Shown here piece by piece: positions 30,805-30,912 of a stretch of 36,023 bases of DNA. The translations under genes were made by a program, and so were the position numbers. Position 1 is the stretch's first letter. Every line of letters starts with the position of its first letter. The DNA is from a bacterium. GTDB lineage: Bacteria; Patescibacteriota; Minisyncoccia; UBA6257; 2-01-FULL-56-20. The DNA is taken from positions 1-36,023 of the forward strand of contig JAKAGE010000001.1 of the NCBI GenBank assembly GCA_021817655.1, given 5' to 3'. The notes under the pieces were generated by a model that ran no database searches, was not told the DNA's origin, and worked only from the letters and a program-made list of their open reading frames with translations.

Positions 30805-30832
30805 TTGACGATGAATATCTCTTTGTTATTAT
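30805..30832 (+). promoter_or_regulatory. sigma70-like promoter with an AT-rich UP region
   Basis: TTGACG (30805-30810), 16 nt, TATTAT (30827-30832), followed by the CTCTGG motif also seen after the rpsL and rpsJ promoters. Confidence 0.55.
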
Positions 30833-30838
30833 GAAGCT

Positions 30839-30912
30839 CTGGGTAGCAATCCGGACCCCGATCAAAGCACCCTGCAAAGATCGAACAAAATATCCCTTCG
30901 GGGATTTTTTGT
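30839..30912 (+). ncRNA. candidate 75-nt small RNA
   Basis: Bounded by the promoter above and the terminator ATCCC-TTCG-GGGAT plus TTTTTTG (30892-30912). Its 5' 18 nt are complementary to 30715-30732. Internal hairpin CGATC...GATCG. Confidence 0.45.

Follow-up and report, generated by a model that had tools for sequence, protein, structure and literature searches.

A candidate two-RNA module in Patescibacteria: a tRNA-Ala-derived RNA and an adjacent small RNA complementary to its anticodon-like arm

In a genome of the Patescibacteria (candidate phyla radiation, CPR), a gene for a small RNA (sRNA1) lies next to a tRNA-like element, and the 5' end of the small RNA is complementary to the central part of this element. 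What could such a pair of adjacent non-coding genes do? The locus is found on contig JAKAGE010000001.1, of which the first 36,023 nucleotides (nt), hereafter the window, were analysed; the tRNA-shaped RNA is called TLD1 and forms, together with sRNA1, module 1. An initial annotation had offered two answers, namely an intermolecular helix that replaces a missing anticodon arm of the tRNA-like element, or a longer transcript folding into a 144-nt hairpin. The present analysis favours, with moderate confidence, another one: an autonomous two-RNA module in which the sRNA would act in trans as an antisense RNA, unfolding a stable tRNA mimic and neutralising it. This reading was built on sequence comparisons and on predicted structures and binding energies.

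TLD1, sRNA1 and their pairing

On sequence grounds, TLD1 is a derivative of tRNA-Ala(UGC). Indeed, it has in common with the host tRNA-Ala(UGC) (35541-35611, minus strand) the motifs GGGCC, CGG.UUGC..CC near the anticodon and GGUCCA, and its T arm is that of the host tRNA except for one loop base; acceptor pairs 6 and 7 differ from those of the host tRNA by compensating changes. The acceptor stem and the T arm of tRNA-Ala are present, and a complete cloverleaf with a D arm is not (coordinates are collected in Table 1). The anticodon arm, which had been thought to be missing, is in place: TLD1 has its own covarying arm of 9 base pairs (bp; 30714-30722 with 30731-30740), and it is the D stem that is absent instead. 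G3:U70 and an acceptor/T minihelix are established requirements for alanyl-tRNA synthetase (AlaRS) and RNase P, and TLD1 appears to carry all that these enzymes are known to need, which is not so for TLD2, the corresponding RNA of a second module described below.

General detectors did not recognise this RNA. ARAGORN called only two tRNAs in the window, and TLD1 is not among them; the Rfam tRNA and transfer-messenger RNA (tmRNA) models gave less than 12 bits at TLD1, the tRNA model falling below a clan competitor at 11.7 bits. The best score of the tmRNA clan (cyano_tmRNA, 11.7 bits against a gathering score of 70) concerns the T arm only, and the best Rfam match overall is a sub-threshold one to mascRNA (20.8 bits). 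Rfam thus reports nothing at TLD1 at its gathering thresholds and, at E<=10, just the weak mascRNA match and the T-arm-limited tmRNA match. TLD1 scores 89 bits with R1, a covariance model built from three TLDs.

The sRNA1 gene has the anatomy of a self-contained unit, as initially annotated: the promoter, the CTCTGG hexamer and the hairpin terminator with its T run are all present. The hexamer also occurs after the -10 elements of rpsL (TTGACA-17-TACAAT-T-CTCTGG) and rpsJ (TTGACA-16-TATACT-C-CTCTGG). The terminator can be regarded as bidirectional because it scores equally on the minus strand. No obvious antiterminator alternative was seen in sRNA1, and no open reading frame (ORF) follows its terminator in the window.

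The two complementary segments (30715-30732 and 30841-30858) form an inverted repeat with 17/18 complementary positions. When the 18-mer was searched with <=3 mismatches, just these two sites were found in the window, against 0.02 expected by chance, and the proposed pairing is therefore non-random there. A diverged ortholog of module 1 occupies the same place in loci L213 and L214, which belong to one species (EF-G ~85% and helicase 87% identical to those of the window). In L213, the TLD segment GAAGACGGATTGCTACCC and the sRNA start GGGTAGCAATCCGTCTTC are complementary at 18/18 positions, with the 108-nt spacing of the window. Alignment of the two segments with L213, a check suggested by the initial annotation, revealed compensating changes that keep the helix: three pairs of the intermolecular helix are changed on both sides, and the A.A mismatch of the window is replaced by a G-C pair. 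The helix of the two species is 97% paired in register, versus 19-47% when the partner is slid by 1-3 columns. Within TLD1, the internal stem of the arm differs at four pairs, each altered on both sides (UGGGAC/GCCCCA in the window, CGAAGA/UCUUCG in L213), and so does acceptor pair 6-67 (U-A in the window, C-G in L213), which makes five TLD1 pairs changed on both sides in all; no difference is seen in the arm loop or in the first 13 nt of the sRNA. Because arm stem and seed changed in concert, the comparison indicates that three strands, i.e. the two strands of the arm and the sRNA seed, have co-evolved.

The rest of the L213 gene is in line with this picture. Its promoter is TTGACG-16-TATCAT, with the hexamers kept over a diverged spacer, its sRNA keeps the inner hairpin CGAUC...GAUCG, and its terminator has the same shape with another sequence; no ORF follows the terminator. 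The leader and trailer of TLD1 are the same in L213 and hence give no covariation evidence either way. An outer helix, CCGUAU/AUACGG, also seems compensated in L213 but was not counted, as it overlaps the likely -10 box and stands at another distance there. A small-protein reading of sRNA1 was rejected: no ORF at module 1 is common to the window and L213, and the ATG at 30831 is ATA in L213. Nor is any tmRNA-style tag frame kept between the two, as had been noted for the window. Furthermore, the tRNA-Arg gene beside the module has decayed in L213 while the module is intact, so that the module is not simply young DNA, which suggests selection on it. Same-species copies from four other samples are identical or differ just outside the module and are therefore uninformative for covariation.

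Since the pairing with sRNA1 covers the 5' strand and the loop of the existing arm, arm and intermolecular helix exclude each other. The helix thus does not stand in for a missing arm, as initially proposed; on the predicted structures, the sRNA competes with an arm that TLD1 already has.

Further modules, distribution and genomic setting

Besides TLD1 and the genuine tRNA-Ala genes, R1 detected in the window a 69-nt element (TLD2, 19.1 bits), which belongs to a second module. Its sRNA gene, sRNA2, pairs with TLD2 through a 5' seed and a second segment (Table 1), and no ORF follows the sRNA2 terminator in the window. A second covariance model including TLD2 was dropped, as MAFFT could not align the longer arm of TLD2. 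In the sister strain L229, EF-Tu and TLD2 are identical to those of the window; sRNA2 has diverged there and still pairs with TLD2 through both segments. A second segment antisense to the D-linker is found in three of the five variants examined.

An analogue of the module, which may or may not be homologous, is present on the unrelated metagenome contig L088, which is not of CPR origin (neighbouring genes: purF, purD and a GIY-YIG gene). It encodes a 70-nt Ala-type TLD of the same architecture, followed by a terminator, beyond which the loop and 5' strand of the arm recur as a direct repeat. On the opposite strand, this repeat corresponds to a convergent sRNA of ~60 nt with its own promoter (TTGCCT-17-TAAAAT), a seed at the 5' end and a bidirectional terminator common to both genes.

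Net predicted binding energies, which count the cost of unfolding both partners, are -19.3 kcal/mol for the cognate pair of window module 1, -13.1 for L213, -18.9 for L088, -20.3 for window module 2 and -13.7 for module 2 of L229. Non-cognate combinations give 0 to -9 kcal/mol (about 0 for TLD1 with sRNA2 and for TLD2 with sRNA1), and shuffled seeds give means of -3.6 to -5.0. Each TLD is thus predicted to be specific for its own sRNA. Genuine tRNA-Ala as a target of sRNA1 was rejected (-0.8 kcal/mol), and tRNA-Arg is a weak one (-7.2). Every predicted complex opens the TLD arm, and the minimum free energy structures also lose the acceptor stem.

The module is patchily distributed and lies in a variable island rich in defence and toxin-antitoxin (TA) genes. 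Most relatives sampled around EF-G, helicase, MazG and EF-Tu are without it: TLD and sRNA are both absent from L081-L084, L218 and L220, which have the same flanking genes, and in L210 and L222 the fusA terminator hairpin is followed directly by tRNA-Arg, with no module in between. Among 80 GTDB loci with fusA synteny (<=70% identity), the 33 closest, examined with ARAGORN, have no tRNA or tmRNA gene after fusA. A promoter-plus-seed scan of the collected loci returned known modules only and missed the diverged module of L229. Searches of Rfam, phages, plasmids and the literature gave no family matching the two-RNA module: BLAST against phages and plasmids produced generic T-arm matches or nothing, and in viral contigs two patterns gave nothing, while the three matches to TCTGGGTAGCAATCCG lie in coding sequence and are due to chance. 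The metagenome pattern GGTTCGANTCCCCTNNGGTCCACCG was too permissive, nearly all matches being ordinary tRNA-Ala genes, and it missed the window's own sequence; L088 was a useful by-product.

Short Ala-type elements without a D arm were also seen on GC-rich metagenome contigs (L128, 1242-1300 and 13027-13082; L107, 1016-1096 and 4826-4917; L150, L136, L135 and L144). They are 44-92 nt long, sometimes occur twice per contig, are each followed by a conserved CTGATTTGCAGGG motif, and are called neither by ARAGORN nor by Rfam; they could represent attachment sites or a further family of tRNA mimics.

The EF-G encoded in the window, which derives from a CPR genome, is <=70% identical to those of GTDB species representatives, all of them CPR, and 80-94% identical to proteins of metagenome bins of the Paceibacterota/Minisyncoccia type. 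The str operon (rpsL, rpsG, fusA) is encoded on the minus strand, with fusA at 31090-33252; tuf is located at 20558-21757, also on the minus strand. Module 1 is directly downstream of fusA and convergent with it, within the 620 nt that separate the end of fusA from a tRNA-Arg(UCU) gene (30553-30626, minus strand). Beyond tRNA-Arg, an operon of low GC content (40-44%) codes for a MazG-like protein and a helicase of the DUF2075/Schlafen type. In relatives, the stretch from fusA to metK or from fusA to tuf is a variable island with restriction-modification, GmrSD, zeta, PemK and SocA/Panacea genes. No smpB gene is present within the window.

Several features of these surroundings deserve mention in their own right. 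In the tRNA-Arg(UCU) gene, the acceptor stem is mismatched at two positions (C3.U70 and C6.U67), and the score is a mere 41.9 bits; its ortholog in L210 has a perfectly paired acceptor stem, and that of L213 is no longer called. The window copy may, from its sequence, be on the path to a pseudogene. The MazG-like/helicase operon (28217-30471, minus strand) recurs at 72-90% identity in many Paceibacteria, and in many of these the helicase carries a fused LexA-like S24 peptidase domain; the operon is possibly a conserved system of defence or one linked to SOS. A SAM-I riboswitch (26365-26474, minus strand; 44.5 bits against a gathering threshold of 44.4) precedes an apparently shortened ORF matching S-adenosylmethionine synthetase (metK).

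Between module 1 and fusA, a 42-nt inverted copy of the last fusA codons (30934-30975 against 31099-31140, 74% complementary) prolongs the terminator hairpin into the coding region and was not seen in L210 or L213. A conserved GC-rich element of ~75-100 nt, with the core CGGAGGCNCGNAGGNGCCGAGCG...CAG...ACCCGUCC, is nested in the long terminator hairpin that begins at the stop codon of fusA (or tuf). Covariation is seen in the inner hairpin of the element (GGCGC/GCGCC, GGCAC/GUGCC, GCCGC/GCGGC), and Rfam gives no match to the element. Near module 2, the stretch from sRNA2 to the tuf terminator contains a long-range hairpin (20405-20470, minus strand), part of which is a fragment resembling a tRNA 3' end (GTTCGAATCCGGTGCGCA, 20405-20425); the terminal GGTGCGCAAA of this fragment is similar to the 3' end of the window tRNA-Arg, and the fragment may be an integration-site relic. 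In L229, a hydrophobic ORF of 89 aa (4487-4756, minus strand of the locus, in the direction of sRNA2), equipped with the ribosome-binding site GGAGG, is placed between the sRNA2 terminator and tuf and is absent from the window. It could be a module-regulated gene or a type I-like toxin.

Table 1. Coordinates of the module features and of the GC-rich nested element (window positions unless a locus is named)
Feature	Position	Strand	Remarks
5' leader GCGGU / 3' trailer ACCGC of TLD1	30692-30696 / 30765-30769	+	pairing would lengthen the acceptor helix in the precursor
TLD1	30697-30765	+	69-nt tRNA-Ala-derived RNA; from predicted fold, tRNA-Ala alignment and L213 comparison
TLD1 acceptor stem	30697-30703 with 30758-30764	+	7 bp, GGGCCUC/GAGGUCC; G3:U70; A73 at 30765
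TLD1 linker in place of D arm	30704-30713	+	10 nt, GCCCGGGUGC; contains GG, no stem
TLD1 anticodon-like arm	30714-30740 (30714-30722 with 30731-30740)	+	9 bp, loop AUUGCUAC; supported by covariation
TLD1 target segment	30715-30732	+	5' strand and loop of the arm; predicted to be bound by the sRNA1 seed
TLD1 T arm	30741-30757	+	AGGGG-UUCGACU-CCCCU, canonical; abuts the anticodon-like arm without variable loop
AT-rich spacer	30773-30804	+	possibly UP-like tract; well kept in L213
sRNA1 promoter	30805-30832 (-35 30805-30810; -10 30827-30832)	+	TTGACG-16-TATTAT, TG before -10; score 10/12
Initial hexamer CTCTGG	30837-30842	+	
sRNA1	30841-30912	+	~72 nt, predicted ends; starts ~75 nt after TLD1
sRNA1 seed	30841-30858	+	pairs with TLD1 30715-30732
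sRNA1 hairpin	30859-30883	+	CGAUC/GAUCG
sRNA1 second pairing segment	30866-30872	+	AGCACCC, against GGGTGCT at 30708-30714
sRNA1 intrinsic terminator	30885-30912	+	ATCCC-TTCG-GGGAT at 30892-30905, then T run
Module 2, whole	20188-20404	+	downstream of and convergent with tuf; AT-rich spacer after TLD2
TLD2	20188-20256	+	acceptor GGGGGUG/CACCCCC; linker GCAUAGUGC; arm UGAAUCC...GGAUUCA; degenerate T arm
sRNA2 promoter	20303-20330	+	TTGACA-16-TACCAT, TG before -10
sRNA2	20337-20404	+	68 nt; terminator 20377-20398, then T run
sRNA2 seed	20337-20353	+	17 nt; pairs with 5' strand and loop of the TLD2 arm
sRNA2 second segment	20357-20366	+	pairs with TLD2 linker
GC-rich nested element, after fusA	window 30977-31096; L210 636-775; L222 7100-7240; L081 8108-8250; L218 4325-4460		
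GC-rich nested element, after tuf	L229 4195-4320		

Proposed antisense neutralisation in trans and its alternatives

In the preferred reading, i.e. antisense neutralisation in trans, the first gene would give a stable tRNA-shaped RNA made of an acceptor/T minihelix, a GG-containing linker for the D arm and a 9-bp anticodon-like arm. This RNA would be matured like a tRNA, by RNase P, 3' trimming and CCA addition, and TLD1 might be charged by AlaRS. The second gene would give an sRNA of ~70 nt from a strong sigma-70-type promoter and an intrinsic terminator, the 5' end of which is antisense to the loop and the 5' strand of the arm. This single-stranded 5' end would nucleate on the exposed arm loop and then invade the arm, and the resulting intermolecular duplex of 18-28 bp, incompatible with the tRNA-like fold, would neutralise the mimic and probably mark both RNAs for double-strand-specific cleavage. 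What the sequences show is the anatomy of the genes, a pairing that is kept and co-varies, its predicted specificity for the cognate partner, the paralogy and the patchy occurrence; we infer that the genes are transcribed and their products processed and charged, and likewise which RNA regulates which and what the module does in the cell.

The most likely role is that of an RNA-only antagonistic pair, either a labile antisense antitoxin against a stable, potentially harmful tRNA mimic, or a regulator with its dedicated sponge. A toxin-antitoxin-like function is ranked first, followed by cis regulation of the kind known for C4 and CI and then by the regulator/sponge option. This first rank is based on (i) the RNA-only content of the module, (ii) a strong sRNA promoter versus a weak or unclear TLD promoter, (iii) the presumed stability of the mimic, (iv) the orthogonal paralogs, (v) presence or absence among close relatives and (vi) the location in a defence/TA island.

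Several points weigh against neutralisation in trans. No terminator separates TLD and sRNA in the tandem modules, so that a co-transcript folding in cis is possible, and the TLD1 promoter is weak or unclear. The second pairing segment of module 1 (GGGTGCT/AGCACCC) is not kept in L213. TLD2 has G3-C70 instead of G3:U70 and a degenerate T loop, and aminoacylation can therefore not be a feature common to the family. The comparison set consists of a single true ortholog pair, a paralog together with its strain variant, and a distant analogue; since few sequences were found, the covariation rests on few independent events, and two-sequence shuffle controls are weak, 34-56 of 500 shuffles reaching the observed values. 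Finally, L088, which may be analogous and not homologous, came from a pattern that forces an Ala-type 3' end.

The 144-nt hairpin, formed in cis by a single long transcript, applies to the tandem modules and is a less likely reading: the promoter between the two complementary segments is conserved, and in L088 the genes are convergent, so that a cis hairpin is impossible there and the complementarity is explained by trans pairing alone.

The lack of a terminator between TLD and sRNA and the tandem same-strand layout would also suit a cis regulator resembling phage immunity RNAs, in which TLD, cut out by RNase P, binds the nascent 5' end downstream and controls termination or read-through into a downstream gene or, as antisense, into fusA or tuf. 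Both window modules indeed face the 3' ends of these genes, an ORF (the 89-aa one of L229) follows the sRNA2 terminator on the same strand, and C4 and CI are documented RNase P substrates, with c4 in an operon with its target (PMC5499578, PMC8198154). This reading is nevertheless judged improbable, because the terminators of module 1, of its L213 counterpart and of window module 2 are not followed by an ORF, no obvious antiterminator alternative was found in sRNA1, the Rfam C4 model has no match, and the convergent genes of L088 do not fit.

Ranked below it, and doubtful, is the possibility that the sRNA is a trans regulator of distant mRNAs and TLD its stable decoy, comparable to the tRNA-spacer-derived or prophage-encoded sponges of enterobacteria. 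A 5'-end seed followed by a terminator hairpin is the classical architecture of trans-acting sRNAs, and the predicted specificity of each TLD for its own sRNA also speaks for this reading. On the other hand, the seed with <=3 mismatches has no other site in the 36-kb window, and it changes together with the TLD arm between species and strains, which is hard to fit with a conserved mRNA target.

An assembly of both RNAs into one bipartite ribonucleoprotein, e.g. a split tmRNA in which the sRNA provides the missing arm or the messenger part, is very unlikely. G3:U70, A73, the T arm and the stem-less GG-containing D loop of TLD1 recall such an RNA, and both orthologs have UGCAAAGAUCGAA after the pairing region, but no tag frame is kept (L213 reads GCA AAG AUC GAA UAA, and in the window the frame stays open through the terminator), neither ARAGORN nor the Rfam tmRNA models detect a tmRNA, and the arm with which the sRNA helix competes is TLD's own and covaries. 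Full pairing would furthermore leave 8 nt of TLD1 between the far end of the 18-bp helix and the T arm, which would make a folded tRNA with a foreign arm sterically implausible. A tmRNA with a tag peptide was accordingly rejected, two modules being present in one genome, one of them with G3-C70 in TLD2.

Equally remote is a DNA relic of duplication, inversion or tRNA-gene integration with no RNA function, to which the variable island beside a tRNA-Arg with a damaged acceptor stem, the adjoining inverted fusA 3'-end copy and the tRNA 3'-end-like fragment at 20405-20425 could point, but against which stand three strands changed in concert, including the TLD-internal stem, a promoter and terminator that are kept, a paralog and an analogue that keep the same logic with different sequences, and a module that did not decay in L213 when tRNA-Arg did.

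If the pairing works as proposed for antisense neutralisation in trans, the modules would be autonomous gene pairs with just two products, a tRNA mimic and an RNA whose sole task is to unfold it. They would add a tRNA-derived class of non-coding RNA to tmRNA, Y-like RNAs and viral tRNA-like structures, and an antisense system that targets a structured non-coding RNA, and would be among the very few regulatory RNAs described in uncultivated CPR/Patescibacteria. Intergenic space is scarce in CPR genomes, so that retention of the module implies selection. Module 1 keeps the AlaRS identity set and offers a direct test of whether a chargeable, non-decoding tRNA harms or regulates the cell, and the orthogonal pairs TLD1/sRNA1 and TLD2/sRNA2 could serve as ready-made specific RNA-RNA switches. 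A bolder proposal, which we hold to be unlikely as a whole, would make the locus the first known member of a family of RNA-only addiction or defence elements that are orthogonal, occur in several copies per genome and are found in CPR as well as in other bacteria. Their 'toxin' would be a stable, RNase P-matured tRNA mimic without a D stem, perhaps alanine-charged in module 1, and their 'antitoxin' a short-lived antisense RNA that opens the anticodon-like arm of the mimic.

Comparison with known RNA systems

tmRNA resembles TLD1 in G3:U70, A73, the T arm, a stem-less D loop with GG and a helix that substitutes for the anticodon stem and directly adjoins the T arm, and two-piece tmRNAs can likewise assemble from two transcripts. 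The module differs in that it has no tag frame or pseudoknots, TLD is just 69 nt long and is negative with ARAGORN and Rfam, both TLD acceptor strands are in one piece without circular permutation, and two copies occur per genome, one of them without G3:U70.

YrlA/Y RNAs, mascRNA and pseudo-tRNAs share with TLD1 a tRNA-like acceptor and T arm on a non-decoding RNA, and the weak mascRNA match reflects this shape. None of them has a dedicated antisense partner gene, and YrlA is linked to rsr (Ro) and rtcB, which are absent here, module 1 having fusA, tRNA-Arg, the MazG-like gene and the DUF2075 helicase gene as neighbours. In Rfam, no family, YrlA and other tRNA mimics included, reaches its threshold at either window module.

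Nearest among the documented systems are C4 of phages P1 and P7 and the immunity RNA CI of satellite phage P4, small structured antisense RNAs that are processed by RNase P, stand in tandem with their targets (PMC5499578, PMC8198154) and have no equivalent of the T loop (PMC5499578). As in these systems, an acceptor-stem-like helix would be the RNase P substrate, pairing involves loop sequences, the genes are carried on mobile or variable DNA, and in both window modules, L213 and L229 the two partners stand in tandem on one strand, L088 being convergent instead. Differences are the canonical T arm and alanine identity elements of TLD1 and the nature of the target, which is the leader of a protein-coding operon for C4 and CI (icd-ant, P4 alpha) and in the window a short terminated RNA without ORF (in L229, an 89-aa ORF follows sRNA2); Rfam C4 has no match at E<=10 in 30400-31200 or 20100-20600. 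C4 reportedly (Citron and Schuster, in 1990) pairs via two separate segments.

The module can finally be compared with type VIII and type I TA systems (CreT/CreA, SdsR/RyeA, hok/sok). A difference from type I systems is that no toxin ORF was found in the module when the window was compared with L213. To our knowledge, tRNA mimics are not represented among the RNA toxins described so far; CreT acts by sequestering a tRNA and does not imitate one. Likenesses to both types are the adjacent small genes, an antisense RNA with a strong promoter, extensive complementarity to a more structured and presumably stabler partner, and a patchy occurrence in variable defence/TA islands with several orthogonal copies per genome. 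One criterion for an RNA-only TA system is two adjacent non-coding RNA genes with specific complementarity, and this is the arrangement predicted here from the sequences and the binding energies.

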